The notes below the pieces were generated by a model. That model searched no databases. It saw nothing but the letters and a program-made list of their open reading frames with translations, and was not told the origin of the DNA. The position numbers and the translations under genes are program-made. A stretch of 64,000 nt of DNA from a virus, in the IMG/VR virus record IMGVR_UViG_3300050343_000218; one strand, 5' to 3'. Positions within the stretch are counted from its first letter, which is position 1; each line of letters begins with the position of its first letter. Below, one piece after another: positions 39,442-46,821 of this stretch.

Positions 39442-39666
39442 CTACCAGTCTGGATACATCTCTGTTGAACGAGACTCCTTTCTCCTATTAGTAATTCTCT
39501 TTATTGTGCATTCCTTACACTCATAGGAATAAGAGCTAGGAACGTTTCCCCTAGTTTTTCTAGTTAAATAAAACCCATCTACCAAATCTTTAGTCACACC
39601 GCAAGTCCTACACGTACGTGTCTGAAATAGAACGTGTTCAATTGAAAACTGTTCTTCTAGATCCAT
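39442..39666 (-). CDS. Small zinc-finger protein
   Basis: RTCRTCG...SYECKEC (two CxxC pairs). Confidence 0.7.
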   Translation of the reverse strand: MDLEEQFSIEHVLFQTRTCRTCGVTKDLVDGFYLTRKTRGNVPSSYSYECKECTIKRITNRRKESRSTEMYPDW

Positions 39667-41330
39667 TAGATGTATGGCATCATATATTCAACAGCATATT
39701 GTTTCGATCCATATTCGTCTACTTCCCAAACATTGCCCTCTTCATCAACTACAGTATCGTTATCTAAACCATTGTCAACAAATCCGAAGGGTGCCATATC
39801 CTGTTCAATCTCATTAGAACGCTCATCGTAAATACGTTTGCGGATATCTTGATCCGTCATTTCTCTGAAGTAATCTTGCATTACCATCCAAGAGAAGATG
39901 ACGTGACACATCACCAAGTCATCATTGTATCCTTCATCAGCTTCAAAGGAATCTTTCTTCTGTACAAAAGTTGTCAGTTCTGCAATAGTTTCGTAATCAC
40001 TAATTAAAAGTTTATCTTCTTCAATCAAAGCTTTGAGGTTGGAGCAACCAATCTTTTTGACAGTCTTAGACATCTTGACACCAAGCTGTGCTCTGCCACC
40101 AGAGAAACCAGATCCCATAACTTGTCCTGCACGACCACGCATTGCGCACATTAAAAGGTTTTGATACTCTAGGTCAAACTGGATGATCGATGCAACTTGA
40201 TCTCCAATGTCATTAACCTCTACCATAATATGTGCATTATTATAGTTACGAGCTGTCTCTACAATAATGTTGGGGAATAGAATAGGTTTGATTTCATTGT
40301 TTCGATACTTGCCTATCAAACGATATGGGAACTCTGTGATATCAAATATGCAGAAGGCAGAGTAATCCTGTGAGGTACCACGTGCCACGTCAACTGTCAT
40401 TACATAGTCGTGCCCTTCTTTCCTAGGTTCGTAAATATCTAATCCTCCACTTTTCTGTAGAGGTGTGTCAAAAGATAATGCTTTTAGTTTTGATGGTGCA
40501 ATCAGAGTGTCCTGAGATCCTAGGAATTCGCACTCAAACTCTTGAGTAAACTGCCTTTGCGATGTATTCCTAATCGTCTGTTCTTTCCATTTGTCATCTC
40601 TACCAGGAACTTCAGACCAATGAACTTCTGTTGATATGTACTCATTTCTTCCCTTAAGAGAATCGTTCCACATCTTGTAGAACATATTCATCCCGTTAGG
40701 GGTAGAAACTATAATTACTTTTGATTTCTTTCCGCTACTAATCGTCGGGTAAACGGAACTAAAAAACTGATCACATATATGGTTGGGGATAAACGCAAAC
40801 TCATCCAGGAACACAATATTGAAAGACATACCACGGATAGCACTGGCACTAGTAGAAGCCGCAATAATTTTTGAACCATTTTCTAACTCCAGTGAACCAC
40901 GGTTCCACGCTACAATGCCTTGCTGCATCCAACGCGGTAAATTTTCATAACTTAACTGCAGACGAGAAAGCATCTCTCTCGCCGTAGCAGCTTTGTTTGC
41001 TAGGATAGCGATGTTAACGTTCTCATTGAACAACGCATAGTGAAGCAGGTAAGTCGTCACGATTGTGGACTTACCAGACTGTCTAGGAAGCTTCGCAATG
41101 TTGAATCTGTTTCTGTGGAACTTCCACATCATTTCTTTCTGGAAATCATACATATCAAAAGATATGAGACCAGCGTCAACGTTGACGATTTGCAGATACT
41201 TTTCAGTAAAGTAAACAGGGTTATCCCTACACTTAATATATTCAGCTACTTGTTTCTTGGTAAAATTTTGAGAAGTATTAGCTTTCTTAAGATTGGGATT
41301 ACCAAGATATACATCACTATGTGCAGGCAT
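39666..41330 (-). CDS. gp17: Terminase large subunit
   Basis: YLGNPNLK, PRQSGKST, FLDEFAF, VSTPNG, DVARG, HIMVEVND, NDDLVM. Confidence 0.98.
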   Translation of the reverse strand: MPAHSDVYLGNPNLKKANTSQNFTKKQVAEYIKCRDNPVYFTEKYLQIVNVDAGLISFDMYDFQKEMMWKFHRNRFNIAKLPRQSGKSTIVTTYLLHYALFNENVNIAILANKAATAREMLSRLQLSYENLPRWMQQGIVAWNRGSLELENGSKIIAASTSASAIRGMSFNIVFLDEFAFIPNHICDQFFSSVYPTISSGKKSKVIIVSTPNGMNMFYKMWNDSLKGRNEYISTEVHWSEVPGRDDKWKEQTIRNTSQRQFTQEFECEFLGSQDTLIAPSKLKALSFDTPLQKSGGLDIYEPRKEGHDYVMTVDVARGTSQDYSAFCIFDITEFPYRLIGKYRNNEIKPILFPNIIVETARNYNNAHIMVEVNDIGDQVASIIQFDLEYQNLLMCAMRGRAGQVMGSGFSGGRAQLGVKMSKTVKKIGCSNLKALIEEDKLLISDYETIAELTTFVQKKDSFEADEGYNDDLVMCHVIFSWMVMQDYFREMTDQDIRKRIYDERSNEIEQDMAPFGFVDNGLDNDTVVDEEGNVWEVDEYGSKQYAVEYMMPYI

Positions 41331-41494: not shown

Positions 41495-41694
41495 CAGGTT
41501 TCGTAAAGATTATATTCCATCATCATAGCAAACATTCGTTTCTTTAGAATGTCCATCCAAATTTGTTCTTCGTATGGTCTAGCGGGAGAACCTGGCCACA
41601 TCCTTATGGAGTAGTCTAGATGATCATACATCATACGAACTTCATCAATACCTAAGGTCATCGTACAATGCCACTCGGTATTTTCCTCATTCAT
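41494..41694 (-). CDS. Small hypothetical protein (66 aa)
   Basis: WPGSPARPYEEQ motif; coupled to both neighbours. Confidence 0.7.
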   Translation of the reverse strand: MNEENTEWHCTMTLGIDEVRMMYDHLDYSIRMWPGSPARPYEEQIWMDILKKRMFAMMMEYNLYET

Positions 41695-42148
41695 CGAGAG
41701 TACCGTGTGCTCTACGAATCTCTCTCAGTGCTTCAAGGTTCATATCCTTGGTGCCACCATCGTATGCGTGAGCATAACCTTCCGTGATCATTTGTTCGTT
41801 GAGTGACACTGTGTCATCCCCGATGTATAACCAACCCAGAAGACGCCCATACTTGCCAGTGCCACCGACAAGTTCAGTCCTAACAGACAACTCATCATCA
41901 CCAGCCAACGTACCTTCCAGTTTTTCTTTGAGCCAGTTGGTTGCGTCGATTCCAAGAGCTTTCTCCTCTAAGTTTTTCGTCCTTTTCTCTGGCGTATCAA
42001 CGCCTGCAACTCTAACTCTTTCTTTCTTGTATAGATCAAACCCGAGGTCGATAGTAACGTCAATAGTATCACCATCAAGGACACGATTGATCTCCGTCAC
42101 TCGGAAGTTGTAGCAGCTCTTCCTGCTTGGTGGTGTCATTGCTCCCAT
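41687..42148 (-). CDS. Staphylococcal/thermonuclease-family nuclease
   Basis: DGDT, RVAGVDTPE, GKYGRLLG, NEQMITEGYA. Confidence 0.88.
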   Translation of the reverse strand: MGAMTPPSRKSCYNFRVTEINRVLDGDTIDVTIDLGFDLYKKERVRVAGVDTPEKRTKNLEEKALGIDATNWLKEKLEGTLAGDDELSVRTELVGGTGKYGRLLGWLYIGDDTVSLNEQMITEGYAHAYDGGTKDMNLEALREIRRAHGTLDE

Positions 42149-42284
42149 CTTTTAATTCTGTAAATGATATCCTTAATATGTATATGACATAACCTAGTGC
42201 CAATCCGACAGCAATGATTACCAAGATAATCACTGACCATACAGGATCGCCTGGATTATCTAAGGGACGCAATAGTAAATTCAT
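42075..42284 (-). CDS. Small single-pass membrane protein (69 aa)
   Basis: DPVWSVIILVIIAVGLALGYVIYIL hydrophobic helix; ATGA overlap upstream. Confidence 0.65.
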   Translation of the reverse strand: MNLLLRPLDNPGDPVWSVIILVIIAVGLALGYVIYILRISFTELKDGSNDTTKQEELLQLPSDGDQSCP

Positions 42285-42358
42285 TTCTTAACTGGTAGAG
42301 TTAACTCCATACCAATAGTAAGTAGTAGTATAAAAACAAAAACAAACAATGTACTCAT
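42281..42358 (-). CDS. Membrane microprotein (25 aa; not in ORF track)
   Basis: MSTLFVFVFILLLTIGMELTLPVKK; starts 3 nt after the upstream stop and its stop overlaps the next ATG. Confidence 0.55.
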   Translation of the reverse strand: MSTLFVFVFILLLTIGMELTLPVKK

Positions 42359-42361
42359 AAT

Positions 42362-42571
42362 TTATTGAAAATAGATATCATCAAAAGGTGGTACCAGTTG
42401 ATACGCCATTTTATCTCTCAACTTATTAATCCTCTCATCATCATATTGCTGAAAGTTTCCTCGCTTCTCAACTTTCTTATAGTAGTGTAATGCATTGAGG
42501 ATGATTGTATAATCCTCCATACTAAGTTCAAAGTATGCTGCAAAGCTTGGTTCTAGGGGTTCATAGTTCAC
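42362..42571 (-). CDS. Small hypothetical protein (69 aa)
   Basis: LSMEDYTIILNALHYYKK...RINKLRDKM; ATGA-type coupling. Confidence 0.65.
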   Translation of the reverse strand: MNYEPLEPSFAAYFELSMEDYTIILNALHYYKKVEKRGNFQQYDDERINKLRDKMAYQLVPPFDDIYFQ

Positions 42572-42717
42572 GGGTTTCTCGGATCAATTCCTAAACTTTT
42601 CAAATATTCTTGCCACCAATCCTGATCTTTAATATATCTCCAATTAGGAACAGGTTTGCCTCTTTCTATTGTGTAGTATTGATATAGAGCTTCATCGATA
42701 GTCTGTGCGATCTCCAT
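42568..42717 (-). CDS. Small hypothetical protein (49 aa; start revised to 42717)
   Basis: MEIAQTIDEALYQYY...PNWRYIKDQDWW; GAGG SD before ATG. Confidence 0.6.
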   Translation of the reverse strand: MEIAQTIDEALYQYYTIERGKPVPNWRYIKDQDWWQEYLKSLGIDPRNP

Positions 42718-42901
42718 ATTCCTCTTCCTCATCGTCAACATCTGCATATGCATTCGCCACGAAGGGTCCTCGTTTTCGTAGAGGTTCTTTTCCGACATAA
42801 GAGTTTTCTGTATTAACAGCAGATACCCATACGGCAAGTTTCATTACTATAAAAATTAAAACCAGCGGCGTAAAACAACCGATTAAAATTACTGGATTCA
42901 T
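42692..42901 (-). CDS. Small single-pass membrane protein (69 aa; start revised to 42901)
   Basis: MNPVILIGCFTPLVLIFIVMKLAVWV; TAATG overlap. Confidence 0.65.
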   Translation of the reverse strand: MNPVILIGCFTPLVLIFIVMKLAVWVSAVNTENSYVGKEPLRKRGPFVANAYADVDDEEEEYGDRTDYR

Positions 42902-43023
42902 TAATGTTTCCTCGTAAAAGGTTCCCAGTGCTCCCAACCATATTTATGAACGAGATCCATTCCTATAATAGGAACTACTATTAAGATCATTGATAGGAGA
43001 CCCAAACTCCACTGATGCTCCAT
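42901..43023 (-). CDS. Membrane microprotein (40 aa; not in ORF track)
   Basis: MEHQWSLGLLSMILIVVPIIGMDLVHKYGWEHWEPFTRKH; its stop overlaps the next ATG. Confidence 0.6.
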   Translation of the reverse strand: MEHQWSLGLLSMILIVVPIIGMDLVHKYGWEHWEPFTRKH

Positions 43024-43030
43024 CGTATAT

Positions 43031-43129
43031 CTAATAAGGATAAGCATTACCCAACCCCCATACTACAAATAGTGCTATAAAACTGAGTAGAAAAAATCCT
43101 GTTGCTCTTACGTTAGAAACTTTATTCAT
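43031..43129 (-). CDS. ndhQ: NdhQ-like NDH-1 small subunit candidate (32 aa; not in ORF track; symbol tentative)
   Basis: MNKVSNVRATGFFLLSFIALFVVWGLGNAYPY aligns without gaps to the NdhQ C-terminal helix as I recall it (LILGFIAGLIWWALHTAYA); TAATG coupling. Confidence 0.55.
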   Translation of the reverse strand: MNKVSNVRATGFFLLSFIALFVVWGLGNAYPY

Positions 43130-43293
43130 TACTCAATAAACTCCCGCCAAGGATCTGAATTGTGTAGGCACGATCTAGGATGAACCCACTCGTTATTTAA
43201 TTGATCAAGCTTAAGCTTTAATAACAAATTTTCTTGTTTCAAGATATTAATTTGTTCGTTTAAAATATCAATTGATAACTTAGATAGATTCAT
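43129..43293 (-). CDS. Small coiled-coil protein (54 aa; not in ORF track)
   Basis: MNLSKLSIDILNEQINILKQENLLLKLKLDQLNNEWVHPRSCLH...; overlaps both neighbours. Confidence 0.6.
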   Translation of the reverse strand: MNLSKLSIDILNEQINILKQENLLLKLKLDQLNNEWVHPRSCLHNSDPWREFIE

Positions 43294-43480
43294 TCCTGGT
43301 TTTCCAAAGTTCTAAAAAATACCGATCGACGTTATACAAATCACTTTGAGGTGGTTGCTCTTCGATCTTAGACCATTCGTTACAAAGATCTCTCATCTCA
43401 AGTGTAATATGATCTGGTCTAAACATCCTACCAAATGAGGACATAGCAAAAGCAAAACGCATTTTAATGCGCTGTTCCAT
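43280..43480 (-). CDS. Small hypothetical protein (start 43480 or 43462, not 43588)
   Basis: MRFAFAMSSFGRMF...VDRYFLELWK; the upstream part of the track ORF is occupied by ndhP in another frame. Confidence 0.6.
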   Translation of the reverse strand: MEQRIKMRFAFAMSSFGRMFRPDHITLEMRDLCNEWSKIEEQPPQSDLYNVDRYFLELWKTRNESI

Positions 43481-43595
43481 TTCCTGAGTAGGCGTCGGTT
43501 TCATAATAGTTATTCTCACCTCTTCTGTGCCCGAAATAAATGGTGGCACATATAAAGGGTAGTGATCCGAAAAGTAGGACATCAGCAAAAGTCAT
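43464..43595 (-). CDS. ndhP: NdhP, small subunit of cyanobacterial NDH-1L (43 aa; not in ORF track)
   Basis: MTFADVLLFGSLPFICATIYFGHRRGENNYYETDAYSGNGTAH: one TM helix, then FG...Y(D/E)TDxYxGNGxAH, the NdhP C-terminal signature; ATGA overlap with the gnd-like stop. Confidence 0.85.
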   Translation of the reverse strand: MTFADVLLFGSLPFICATIYFGHRRGENNYYETDAYSGNGTAH

Positions 43596-44062
43596 TCAAC
43601 GTTCCCTGGTGATAGTGATTGAAAAATTCTAGAGCAGGCATCGACAGCATAGGGTGCGCCATATACTCCAGAGAAGATATATGAGATGCCAAGCTTAGAG
43701 CAATACTTCTCAAGCTCCTGACATTTTGGTATGTCTTTGTTACTGTGATCAATAATTATATCACCTTCTTCAAGTAAAGGTAGCAACTCATCAAGTGTGT
43801 CTTCTACTTTTACTTCTGGGAGTGTGATCTGAAAAATACCAGGAACTTTACCAGCACTAGTAAATTTCTTAGTATCAGATTTAACTGCTTGAACAAGATA
43901 CTCCAGTGAAGTTACACACCCACTAAGATGTCCTGCTTCATATTGTCCACAGGCATTTTCGTAGTTAGTACTACTGTAACCCCAGACTTCAATTCCTTTC
44001 TCAAGCATACGGCGAGCCATACCTTCACCAGTACGACCCAACCCAATCATTCCAACTTTCAT
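43592..44062 (-). CDS. gnd: Truncated 6-phosphogluconate dehydrogenase (Rossmann domain only, 156 aa)
   Basis: MKVGMIGLGRTGEGMARR...GDIIIDH...SGVYG...IFQSLSPG; lacks the catalytic helical domain. Confidence 0.75.
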   Translation of the reverse strand: MKVGMIGLGRTGEGMARRMLEKGIEVWGYSSTNYENACGQYEAGHLSGCVTSLEYLVQAVKSDTKKFTSAGKVPGIFQITLPEVKVEDTLDELLPLLEEGDIIIDHSNKDIPKCQELEKYCSKLGISYIFSGVYGAPYAVDACSRIFQSLSPGNVE

Positions 44063-44069
44063 CTTTACC

Positions 44070-44393
44070 TCAATTTACGTGAATTACTCCAGTCATACCT
44101 GCGCCCTGATGAGGACCGCAGAAGAAATTATAGTCCCCTTTGTCTGCAAATACAACGTCTTGTGATTCTCCTGGAGCAAAAAGTAATGCTTCTCTAGAAA
44201 GATCAGGACGTGCCTCAACAATAATATTGTGGGGAGGTAGAGCTTCGTTGACAAAGTGAAGCGTGTCTCCTGCAGAGATTGTAATATCGTTAGGTTCAAA
44301 TACCAAGTTACCGCCAGCTCCCATCACTACATCTACTGCCCAAGCAGGAGACGCCAAAAATAGTACTGTGATGCAAGCAAATAGAAATTTCAT
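44070..44393 (-). CDS. petE: Plastocyanin
   Basis: Signal peptide ending AWA; LVFEP, PPHN, FFCGPHQGAGM with all four Cu ligands. Confidence 0.95.
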   Translation of the reverse strand: MKFLFACITVLFLASPAWAVDVVMGAGGNLVFEPNDITISAGDTLHFVNEALPPHNIIVEARPDLSREALLFAPGESQDVVFADKGDYNFFCGPHQGAGMTGVIHVN

Positions 44394-45071: not shown

Positions 45072-45566
45072 ATGACTAAATTATTGCCATTAGTAATGAT
45101 TCTGATGACCGCATCTGCTGCACAAGCTGGCGGACTTGTATCAAAACACGCTTCTAGCGTTCAACTAACTGTTGATGCAGCTAGAACTCAAGCGACAAGA
45201 ATTGGTTCCTCATTTAGTATCTCTGGTTCAAACATTGATACTACTGACGGTAACACAGCAGGCACAGTGTCTGTAGGCACGATCACGTCTGGAGTATATG
45301 CTCCTGGCACTATTGCTGCTACTCAAGACACAGCAGGTACTGCGTTCTCATTTAGTCAGTCTTATACACAGGCTGATGCGGTCCCAACTGGTGCTCCTAC
45401 TGTAGGAGCTGTTCCTAACTTCAGTAATGTAACTTCTTACACTGCTGGTACTGCTGGAGCATTAGCTGGTACAATTACTTCGGCAGGGGTAATCGGAGTG
45501 ACTGCTGGCGGGGCTGGTACGACAGCTACTGGACAATTTGTGAGTGAGATCACTGTCATTGACTGA
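45072..45566 (+). CDS. Secreted beta-rich hypothetical protein
   Basis: Signal peptide MTKLLPLVMILMTASAAQA; Thr/Ser/Gly/Ala-rich. Confidence 0.8.
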   Translation: MTKLLPLVMILMTASAAQAGGLVSKHASSVQLTVDAARTQATRIGSSFSISGSNIDTTDGNTAGTVSVGTITSGVYAPGTIAATQDTAGTAFSFSQSYTQADAVPTGAPTVGAVPNFSNVTSYTAGTAGALAGTITSAGVIGVTAGGAGTTATGQFVSEITVID

Positions 45567-45577
45567 GGATAGTAACA

Positions 45578-46015
45578 ATGAAAACTATGATTCGTTGGTC
45601 TGTCCTTGCTGCGGTGGGTGCAAGTGCCATACTTGCTCCTGCCCAGGCGGTCCCTGTGGTCCCAAATTTCACACAGGGATCAATGTCGAGCCACACGGAG
45701 ACAACACAAACGATAACAGAAACGATAAACAGTATGGATTATTCCACTGGTTATCAATACTCCGCGACTGGTTCGGGAGTAACCGCTAGCGGGAATCTTT
45801 CCCCTAGTATGAATGAAAATAACATTACTATTAATGGAGTGGCATCGAAATGGATTGGGGTGCAATCAAAACCTTCCTTCACGCAAACGACACCAGGATC
45901 AGCTTTCCAGTTTACGGAAACTCTTTCAGCACCTGGATTGCAAAATCACACAATTATAAACAGAGTGACCGAGGTTACAAGCGTAACCGACACGACAAGT
46001 ATCTTCTCGCAATAA
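45578..46015 (+). CDS. Secreted beta-rich hypothetical protein
   Basis: GAGGA SD; signal peptide ending PAQA, then VPVVPNFTQG. Confidence 0.8.
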   Translation: MKTMIRWSVLAAVGASAILAPAQAVPVVPNFTQGSMSSHTETTQTITETINSMDYSTGYQYSATGSGVTASGNLSPSMNENNITINGVASKWIGVQSKPSFTQTTPGSAFQFTETLSAPGLQNHTIINRVTEVTSVTDTTSIFSQ

Positions 46016-46821
46016 AAGCATTATGTCTATCTGCCCTATCTGTAAGTGTAGCTGCCCCTGTAAATGCGGAAACTGTGGGGGGTGTAAGTGCAACCGCATC
46101 TCCCGTAGCAAATAGCTCTGGCTCAGTTACCAATCAAGCTATTCAGGTATTACAAGGACCGTATATCACTAACACATATGGTGGTGGAATCCAGTGTCAA
46201 GGACCCACCAGAAACTTCACGCCATATGTAACAGGAAGTGCGTCTGCTTCCAAACCATACGAAGATTATTATAACGATCCAGTATATGATATCAGTGATA
46301 ATTTTGGTGCCTTCGATGATGATGGAAATGCTGTTGGGGACGGCATTATCGACAATCCAGGTGACATTCTCTTCCATAAGAGAACACGTACTGGACAGAA
46401 AGATAACTACAGTCTAGGTGTTGGTTTCTCTATGACGTGGAGTACACCTACCGACAAGAAACTGCAGGAGCTATGTAAAGAAGCAGCTGCTTCTAACATT
46501 GAGATGATGAAACAGCTGACTGCCAATAAAAGATTGGATTTTGAGATTGCGAGACTTAAGAATTGTGGTCAACTAATGAAGGATGGAATTAGTTTTCATC
46601 CCAGAAGTCCTTACTATAAAATATGTGCCGATGTCGTAGTGCAGAACGTAAATACTATCCAACAGCATAATCATTCTATACCTGTTGCTATTCCTATTAC
46701 TTCTTCTTCTTCTGACTCTTCGCCGCAACAGACCGAAGCTTTGCAATCGCTTCATTCCGAAGACGCTGCTCTGCTCGGCGTTCCGTTACAGATTCAACCT
46801 TTGGTTTCTTCCCCCGAATAG
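46012..46821 (+). CDS. Secreted hypothetical protein with Cys motifs; probable ATA start at 46012
   Basis: (I/M)KALCLSALSVSVAAPVNA signal peptide starts at ATA overlapping the upstream TAA; IQCQGP, LCKEAA, LKNCG, ICADV. Confidence 0.7.
   Translation: MKALCLSALSVSVAAPVNAETVGGVSATASPVANSSGSVTNQAIQVLQGPYITNTYGGGIQCQGPTRNFTPYVTGSASASKPYEDYYNDPVYDISDNFGAFDDDGNAVGDGIIDNPGDILFHKRTRTGQKDNYSLGVGFSMTWSTPTDKKLQELCKEAAASNIEMMKQLTANKRLDFEIARLKNCGQLMKDGISFHPRSPYYKICADVVVQNVNTIQQHNHSIPVAIPITSSSSDSSPQQTEALQSLHSEDAALLGVPLQIQPLVSSPE

Follow-up and report, generated by a model that had tools for sequence, protein, structure and literature searches.

In the solved structures of cyanobacterial NDH-1L, the small subunits NdhP and NdhQ sandwich NdhD and contact NdhF, lipids and carotenoids (PMC6992706), and deleting either one disassembles the complex (PMC6992706, PMC4131877). 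The gene ndhP is known from cyanophages (Schwarz et al. 2013, as cited in PMC6596454), including copies in P-TIM68 and S-SCSM2R (PMC12801897), as the initial annotation of the present locus had noted. Phage ndhP is already published; for a phage NdhQ, no report or other mention was found in the literature searched. Here, both genes are described in a 64,000-nt stretch of viral DNA (IMG/VR record IMGVR_UViG_3300050343_000218, the window). The reading put forward, with a probability of about 0.6, is that the region belongs to the hypervariable auxiliary-metabolic-gene island of a marine T4-like Synechococcus myovirus, whose NdhP and NdhQ would replace the host subunits and sustain NDH-1L.

Positions 42075-44393 carry 12 tightly packed co-directional genes on the minus strand, beginning with petE at 44393, and an SNase-like nuclease gene follows as the thirteenth:

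44070-44393, minus strand: petE, plastocyanin precursor, 107 aa, matched by PF00127, TIGR02656 and phrog_515
43592-44062, minus strand: gnd remnant (gndN), 156 aa, the NAD(P)-binding Rossmann domain alone, matched by PF03446 and phrog_3646
43464-43595, minus strand: ndhP, 43 aa, one helix, ATG overlapping the gnd stop (ATGA), matched by PDB NdhP and phrog_2173
43280-43462, minus strand: phrog_593 gene, soluble, 60 aa in its true form, with a conserved TAA/TAG-N-ATG after the ndhP stop
43129-43293, minus strand: phrog_2352 gene, soluble, 54 aa, conserved W-x-HP-x-SC-x-HN, phrog_2352 E 7.7e-9
43031-43129, minus strand: ndhQ, 32 aa, one helix, C-terminal FVVWGLGNAYP, start overlapping the preceding stop (TAATG), with NdhQ profile matches
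42901-43047, minus strand: phrog_1184 gene, 48 aa, one helix, near-invariant VPIIGMxLVHKYGWEHWEPF, phrog_1184 E 2.3e-24
42692-42901, minus strand: phrog_2832 gene, 69 aa from the ATG at 42901, N-terminal helix and acidic C-terminus ending in RTDYR, matched by phrog_2832
42568-42732, minus strand: phrog_2075 gene, soluble, about 54 aa, phrog_2075 aligned to residues 36-89 of an 89-aa ORF
42362-42571, minus strand: phrog_835 gene, soluble, phrog_835 E 6.4e-34, start uncertain between GTG 42571 (69 aa) and ATG 42520 (52 aa)
42281-42358, minus strand: single-helix micro-gene of 25 aa, family MSxLFVFAFIxLLxxGMELTWPxRYRG (alignment A3)
42075-42284, minus strand: phrog_814 gene, 69 aa, one helix, conserved MNLLLRPLxNxNDPVWS, phrog_814 E 1.2e-38 (alignment A6)
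41687-42148, minus strand: SNase-like endonuclease, 153 aa, phrog_452 endonuclease E 1.6e-75, a downstream neighbour beyond the 12-gene range

The initial annotation had described thirteen contiguous minus-strand ORFs joined almost throughout by overlaps or short gaps, and both statements hold: 12 ORFs lie within 42075-44393, or 13 when the nuclease at 41687-42148 is counted, and refinement of the starts leaves gaps of 1-7 nt or else overlaps. In particular, gaps separate petE from gndN (7 nt), ndhP from the phrog_593 gene (1 nt) and the phrog_835 gene from the 25-aa gene (3 nt). Overlaps join gndN to ndhP (4 nt, ATGA), the phrog_593 to the phrog_2352 gene (14 nt), the phrog_2352 gene to ndhQ (1 nt, TAATG), ndhQ to the phrog_1184 gene (17 nt), the phrog_1184 to the phrog_2832 gene (1 nt), the phrog_2832 to the phrog_2075 gene (41 nt), the phrog_2075 to the phrog_835 gene (4 nt), the 25-aa to the phrog_814 gene (4 nt), and the phrog_814 gene to the nuclease (74 nt). 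Downstream of the chain, the nuclease is followed by a terminase. The chain itself comprises petE, the gnd remnant, ndhP, ndhQ and eight further small conserved phage genes; six of its products are single-helix membrane proteins, and four are soluble proteins without an assigned function. Every chain gene has homologues in contigs of related phages. Pairwise dN/dS, computed for all but the phrog_593 gene, stays below 1 throughout, indicating purifying selection; on both grounds, the ORFs are more than chance.

The ORF at 43464-43595 is, by sequence, an NdhP homologue of the same family as the phage genes annotated NdhP, in agreement with the initial call. A phmmer search of the PDB with its product returned, up to E 10, only the NdhP chains 6KHI_P (E 1.4e-4) and 6HUM_P (E 1.3e-3); the match to the T. 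elongatus chain is modest for a single sequence (25 bits), and the phage and PDB chains have the motif Y-x-TD-x-Y-x-GNG-x-AH in common. The gene also matches phrog_2173 (E 1.9e-26), and its codon-position entropy in its own frame (20.8/12.9/35.8) places the variation at third positions. Moreover, 395 phage records have a tblastn match to it, among them the CDS annotated as 'NdhP protein' in S-SCSM2R, so that ndhP is common rather than rare in phages. Most of these records are labelled hypothetical, as are most database entries for the gene, and PHROGs gives the family no function.

The evidence that 43031-43129 is a true NdhQ homologue, which the initial annotation had called only NdhQ-like, comes mainly from profiles. 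The 32-aa ORF searched alone against the PDB had no match, its ESM Atlas look-up gave sub-threshold rows only, and a cellular homologue searched alone (P0067, on a 67.5-kb cellular contig among housekeeping genes for thiamine, riboflavin and pheS) missed T. elongatus NdhQ; the distance to that protein was thus bridged by profiles only. A phage-only profile (A2) had NdhQ chains as its top three PDB matches (E 1.2e-3), and a wider profile (A4) matched NdhQ chains exclusively, with 6L7O_Q at E 4.5e-7. Further, BLASTP against NdhQ of Prochlorococcus MIT 9211 (UniRef100_A9BBN7, P9211_13181) gave 18 identities in 30 residues (60%, E 3e-10), and hhalign related the phage and host families with 98% probability (E 2.3e-13). 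The hydropathy maximum of 2.25 falls at residues 11-27, which agrees with a single-helix protein in the 30-45 aa range, and dN/dS is 0.26-0.56. The idea that this copy is a 'minimal' NdhQ was rejected, as its 32 aa are close to the length of marine host NdhQ (34-44 aa); most other phage copies have only 29-30 aa. Among 83 confirmed IMG/VR relatives of ndhQ, ndhP lies within 2.5 kb in 28 of 79 loci. A culturable relative grown on Synechococcus WH7803, ACG-2014h, also has the two genes, with ndhP at 102821-102949 and ndhQ at about 103287-103373 of NC_023587.1. GenBank relatives mostly have no annotation at the position of ndhQ, and give ndhP as 'hypothetical protein'. Pfam and NCBIfam match neither ndhP, ndhQ nor any other micro-ORF; these nulls are uninformative, because a bona fide Prochlorococcus NdhQ is also unmatched, and since neither database has a model of NdhP or NdhQ, there is no curated cut-off for either.

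A complex prediction that paired host NdhD (NU4C_PARMW) with the phage NdhQ alignment scored 0.37, compared to 0.00 for the best of three controls, which gives weak support, as the pass may reflect memory of the already solved NDH-1L with NdhQ. Of 80 solved complexes, 58 reached the mark applied, as did 2 of 110 mismatched pairs, and passes at or below 0.60 comprised 7 of the 80 solved complexes and both of the passing mismatches. The runs agreed in 100% of contacts, with a partner pLDDT of at least 69.

The plastocyanin call is supported. The petE product passes both curated cut-offs (PF00127, 71.7 bits against 21.2; TIGR02656, 92.1 bits against 87.85), matches phrog_515 (E 2.7e-58), and its translation has a signal peptide and all four Cu ligands (H..C-x2-H-x4-M); dN/dS is 0.11-0.14. 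A petE search of genome contigs had a 'Verrucomicrobiales' MAG contig as its sole return. The next gene is, as initially described, a Gnd ORF reduced to its Rossmann domain: PF03446 matches with 54.9 bits over profile positions 1-123 of 161, covering the N-terminal NAD(P)-binding domain, and phrog_3646 (158 aa) matches with E 7e-96. The GTSGG loop and the entire C-terminal 6PGD domain are missing, the NCBIfam gnd models score 33-57 bits, far under their cut-offs of 271-427 for the whole protein, and no C-terminal catalytic domain was found anywhere in the window. Aligned to full-length phage gnd, the remnant has an identical end point in the related loci L014, L059 and L004, and its dN/dS of about 0.1 (0.08-0.15) indicates that the short form is conserved. 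No zwf is present in the window, and together with the lost catalytic domain this argues against a simple programme of more NADPH plus more cyclic flow in this phage.

Two of the soluble genes had to be separated from shadow reading frames. The 102-aa ORF at 43280-43588 consists of the phrog_593 gene and an N-terminal shadow frame of ndhP: codon-position entropy rejects the long frame, the 'TAA/TAG-N-ATG' directly 3' of the ndhP stop is kept in relatives, and the N-terminal part accompanies ndhP even in relatives without the C-terminal part. Similarly, the upstream extension of the 89-aa ORF at 42568-42837 is a shadow of the 69-aa phrog_2832 gene; in the overlap upstream of the phrog_2075 gene, entropy agrees with the 69-aa frame alone, and every position of the last 40 nt is under constraint. 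The phrog_2075 gene has a dN/dS of 0.09-0.17. The phrog_2352 gene has homologues in relatives and a dN/dS of 0.15-0.25, and the heptad-like sequence of its product suggests a coiled coil. Relatives of the phrog_835 gene start 6 codons before MEDY, where the window phage has no ATG.

The further membrane microproteins proposed initially are real, conserved phage genes. The phrog_1184 gene occurs in 333 phage records with a dN/dS of 0.06-0.31 (alignment A1); its identity as NdhP or NdhQ was ruled out, as profile A1 matches just an olfactory-receptor helix in the PDB. The phrog_2832 family (E 8.3e-40) aligns to residues 13-81 of the long ORF and has 22 invariant columns (alignment A5), and its profile had no PDB match. 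The 25-aa gene is present, in varying places, at 41 of 80 related loci, with a dN/dS of about 0.2 and saturated dS, and has no match in PDB, Pfam, PHROG or NCBIfam. The phrog_814 profile (A6) gave spurious PDB matches only. Overall, these four helix families match no solved photosynthetic or respiratory subunit in the PDB.

Across about 160 related loci, gene order and content vary widely. In relatives, ndhP usually lies between full-length gnd and zwf, while ndhQ, the 25-aa gene, petE and gnd occupy differing places or are absent, and one variant contig skips 43007-43420. Rather than a fixed cassette, these auxiliary metabolic genes form a mosaic island. A promoter and terminator scan, including the T4 late-promoter motif, found nothing above chance in the region. 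RNA-library contigs from two studies cover the region, and one of 851 nt spans petE, gndN, ndhP and the next gene, which shows presence in RNA libraries only, as such libraries can carry DNA; two rRNA-depleted metatranscriptome runs leave parts of the stretch without cover.

These observations bear on how the whole should be read. The initial annotation had proposed that the 13 ORFs make up a single cassette devoted to electron transport, whose members together adjust NDH-1, cyclic flow and the ATP:NADPH balance, and the tight packing with start-stop overlaps, the place of petE, ndhP and ndhQ in photosynthetic electron transport and the six single-helix membrane proteins are all in line with it. 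However, the variable synteny among relatives weakens the proposal, the profiles of the four other helix proteins link to no solved subunit, four of the genes are soluble, and the chain runs on into a nuclease and a terminase; a single cassette of 13 ORFs is therefore not upheld, and is considered very unlikely. That the micro-ORFs are chance or untranslated frames, resembling NdhP and NdhQ through hydrophobic composition, is hardly credible. Very short hydrophobic peptides do give weak statistics, and the single NdhQ sequence lacks a PDB match, but ndhP varies at third positions in its own frame, ndhQ has a dN/dS below 1, the ORFs are intact in dozens of diverged loci, the PDB matches are exclusively to the named subunit with low bias, and four control helix families of similar composition match no such subunit. 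As far as sequence evidence goes, this explanation is refuted.

A distinctly unlikely alternative is that phage NdhP and NdhQ act as modifiers or competitors: in displacing the host subunits, they would alter the make-up or activity of NDH-1, for instance by loosening NDH-1L or by tipping the ratio of NDH-1L to the CO2-uptake forms. The divergence of phage NdhQ, with 60% identity to a host copy and a few residues missing at each end, and the mere 29-30 aa of most other phage copies would fit such a role. Against this, what phage and host have in common are the C-terminal motifs that are also conserved among the host copies compared (for NdhP, T. elongatus; for NdhQ, T. elongatus and marine picocyanobacteria), as expected of a functional subunit, and the NdhQ of the window comes close in length to the shortest forms in marine hosts (34 aa).

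The replacement of host subunits by functional phage copies is thus preferred, and we infer that phage NdhP and NdhQ enter host NDH-1L. During infection, both would be inserted into the thylakoid membrane and would take up the host subunits' positions flanking NdhD1/NdhF1, so that NDH-1L could stay assembled while host protein synthesis falls. ATP supply would be maintained through continued cyclic electron flow and respiration, and phage plastocyanin would keep electrons flowing to PSI. The genes may be packed for co-transcription and translational coupling, yet they are independent movable units. It is also plausible that NDH-1 and cyclic flow would be retuned. A bolder and rather unlikely extension is that cyanomyoviruses carry the complete NDH-1L clamp pair together with small phage-specific subunits, or modulators, of the host's thylakoid complexes (phrog_1184, phrog_2832, phrog_814 and the 25-aa family), and that the Rossmann-only Gnd is an NADP(H)-binding regulator, not a dead enzyme.

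A phage with both clamp subunits points to NDH-1L, and thereby to cyclic flow and respiration, as a complex that the virus must keep running. Moreover, gene callers mislabel such loci: ndhQ usually goes unannotated, and family databases now include shadow ORFs that overlap ndhP (the N-terminal part of phrog_593). Surveys of auxiliary metabolic genes are affected by both.

Compared to known systems, petE is a full-length cyanophage plastocyanin gene with intact ligands and no notable difference. The gnd remnant keeps the N-terminal NADP-binding domain and GxGxxG of the cyanophage pentose-phosphate gnd; unlike cyanophage gnd/zwf, it is missing the GTSGG loop and catalytic C-terminal domain and has no zwf in the window, and the short form is still conserved (phrog_3646). 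As in most cyanomyoviruses, ndhP follows gnd, but here gnd is truncated and the phrog_593 gene, not zwf, comes next. Its product has 43 aa compared to 44 aa in NdhP (sml0013 / tsl0520; 6KHI chain P), with one helix in both, and the pattern YFG-x-R...Y-x-TD-x-Y-x-GNG-x-AH is conserved with 6KHI chain P and the known cyanophage copies. The NdhQ of the window, phage-encoded and known here from its sequence, differs from T. elongatus NdhQ (45 aa) in being without the longer N-terminus; it has one helix and the C-terminal W-G/A-L-x-x-A-Y(P) in common with NdhQ (chain Q of 6KHI, 6L7O and 6HUM), is 60% identical to a marine host NdhQ (Prochlorococcus MIT 9211), and is at most 2 aa from the shortest marine host forms.

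The stretch comes from a T4-like cyanomyovirus of a marine lineage. Wherever two IMG/VR contigs cover its ORFs, identity is 100%, and the nearest isolates are S-RIM44, Syn1, S-CAM8 and ACG-2014b, with about 85% nucleotide identity, but over only half of the region.

Features discussed in the text
39666-41330, large terminase
43592-44062, minus strand, short gnd (gndN)
43464-43595, minus strand, ndhP, 43 codons, its ATG overlapping the gnd stop
43031-43129, minus strand, ndhQ, 32 aa
42281-42358, minus strand, 25-aa gene

The initial annotation had read 42075-44393 as one hidden electron-transport cassette of thirteen contiguous minus-strand ORFs. The tight chain exists, but it has twelve genes between petE, itself included (44393), and 42075, and the SNase-like nuclease that follows is the thirteenth. 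Counted from petE, neighbouring genes meet with a gap of 7 nt, an overlap of 4 nt (ATGA), a gap of 1 nt, overlaps of 14, 1, 17, 1, 41 and 4 nt, a gap of 3 nt, and overlaps of 4 and 74 nt. Every chain gene has homologues among 80 related viral loci, which were collected with the phrog_1184 alignment as query, and dN/dS is below 1 for all chain genes computed, the phrog_593 gene being outside that set (phrog numbers denote PHROGs families). In particular, pairwise values are 0.11-0.14 for petE, 0.08-0.15 for gndN, 0.17-0.51 for ndhP, 0.26-0.56 for ndhQ, 0.06-0.31 for the phrog_1184 gene and about 0.2 for the 25-aa gene. At the nuclease end, the phrog_814 protein finishes with 23 residues, GSNDTTKQEELLQLPSDGDQSCP, that are an alternative frame of the nuclease N-terminus (42075-42148) and are kept even with a different gene upstream of the nuclease, which itself covers only positions 55-200 of phrog_452 (201 aa); the two genes may truly overlap over this length, the tail may be a shadow, or the nuclease may be membrane-anchored and frameshifted. 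Three plus-strand ORFs (45072-46821) that diverge from the petE chain have signal-peptide-like N-termini and are rich in Thr, Ser, Gly and Ala.

The gnd ORF, 156 aa long, retains the NADP-binding Rossmann domain and has neither the GTSGG loop nor any part of the catalytic domain; its product cannot be a 6PGDH. Neither zwf nor the gnd C-terminal domain was found within the 64-kb window. Other contigs carry the same short gnd with an identical end point (phrog_3646, a 158-aa family), and the strong purifying selection on it shows a maintained protein rather than a fresh pseudogene. Related phages have other truncations, of 197 and 168 aa (loci L016:1845 onward and L023:2116 onward), so the catalytic domain was lost more than once. 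Further, NYWG01000069.1 (35.7 kb), part of a MAG labelled Verrucomicrobiales, has both petE and the short gnd at 86% identity to the copies here; this is probably a mistakenly binned cyanophage contig.

Across all PDB chains, the sole phmmer match of the ndhP ORF is the NdhP subunit of NDH-1L from T. elongatus (6KHI_P, E 1.4e-4; 6HUM_P), with which its product shares the C-terminal Y-x-TD-x-Y-x-GNG-x-AH. It matches phrog_2173, of unknown function according to PHROGs, end to end. By tblastn, 395 phage records have a match, in nearly every case under a hypothetical label; one match coincides with the S-SCSM2R CDS that is annotated 'NdhP protein'. What hides the gene is a longer ORF in another frame (43280-43588, 102 aa, phrog_593) that overlaps it. 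Variation across 28 distinct sequences, 20.8/12.9/35.8 by ndhP codon position, fits the ndhP frame; in the frame of the 102-aa ORF, position 2 would vary most. Moreover, 'TAA/TAG-N-ATG' is kept in relatives directly after the ndhP stop, and thus the real downstream gene has 60 aa and starts at 43462. In most relatives, as in most cyanomyoviruses, ndhP lies between a full-length gnd and zwf (for example, loci L065:1555-1700, L046 and L068); there no stop codon interrupts the zwf frame within the last third of ndhP, and zwf therefore probably starts before ndhP ends. Phage ndhP is already published (PMC6596454, PMC10452541, PMC12801897), as the initial annotation had noted. A 2025 paper calls it uncommon in cyanophages (PMC12801897), whereas 395 phage records bear it; the discrepancy lies in annotation rather than in biology.

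As a single query, the 32-aa ndhQ ORF has no match in PDB, PHROGs or Pfam. Twelve phage homologues from related loci share WGLxNAYP, and the top three PDB matches of their profile are NdhQ chains (E 1.2e-3). Searched exhaustively with a profile, 1.84 billion proteins yielded 19 matches, mostly 29-30 aa long, and the widened profile matches only NdhQ in the whole PDB (E 4.5e-7). One 44-aa match lies on a cellular contig amid housekeeping genes (thiamine, riboflavin, pheS), and a search from it leads to Prochlorococcus MIT 9211 P9211_13181, named 'NADH dehydrogenase subunit NdhQ' in UniRef, with which the phage ORF shares 18 of 30 residues, ungapped (E 3e-10). Aligned with each other, phage-only and host-only profiles match at 98% probability (E 2.3e-13), while control profiles of four other single-helix families match no photosynthetic or respiratory subunit. 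Marine host NdhQ has 34-44 aa, and the phage copy is therefore near full length. The Gnd Rossmann domain, ndhP and NdhQ-like ORF initially proposed are thus all borne out. In the searched literature, 'ndhQ' and 'phage' co-occur only via a reference title in one paper; IMG/VR holds 83 confirmed relatives of ndhQ.

The single cassette finds no support in about 160 related loci, where gene order differs widely: petE lies upstream in some and downstream in others, ndhP directly follows petE in some, and ndhQ sits after zwf, before gnd or beside unrelated genes. With ndhP within 2.5 kb of ndhQ in 28 of 79 loci, their co-location is frequent, not fixed. The 25-aa gene also changes position; it belongs to an unannotated 25-30 aa family, MSxLFVFAFI..TWP.RYRG (also L014:1456-1539, L048:1024-1104 and L016:2909-2992), found in the petE-gnd gap, upstream of gnd, before phrog_1184 and after the nuclease, and behaves like a mobile micro-gene. 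RNA-library contigs from two studies cover the region, including an 851-nt piece from petE through the gene after ndhP, which is weak evidence of expression because such libraries can contain DNA; another joins 43006 to 43421 and represents a variant phage without the three genes skipped (phrog_593, phrog_2352 and ndhQ). A promoter and terminator scan of the region gave no signal above chance.

Complex prediction with host NdhD and the phage NdhQ alignment lends weak support to their contact (0.37, against 0.00 for the best control), with 100% contact agreement between runs and partner pLDDT of at least 69. Of 80 solved complexes 58 reach the mark, as do 2 of 110 mismatched pairs; passes with a score no higher than 0.60, however, number only 7 among the solved complexes and include both mismatches. 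The pass may reflect memory, since NDH-1L with NdhQ is already solved. Phage NdhP and NdhQ conserve the same residues as the host copies with which they were compared, which points to replacement subunits as their likeliest role: they would hold NDH-1L together and keep it assembled during infection. In the solved NDH-1L, NdhD is sandwiched between NdhP and NdhQ, which touch NdhF, lipids and carotenoids; if either of the two is lost, the complex comes apart (PMC6992706).
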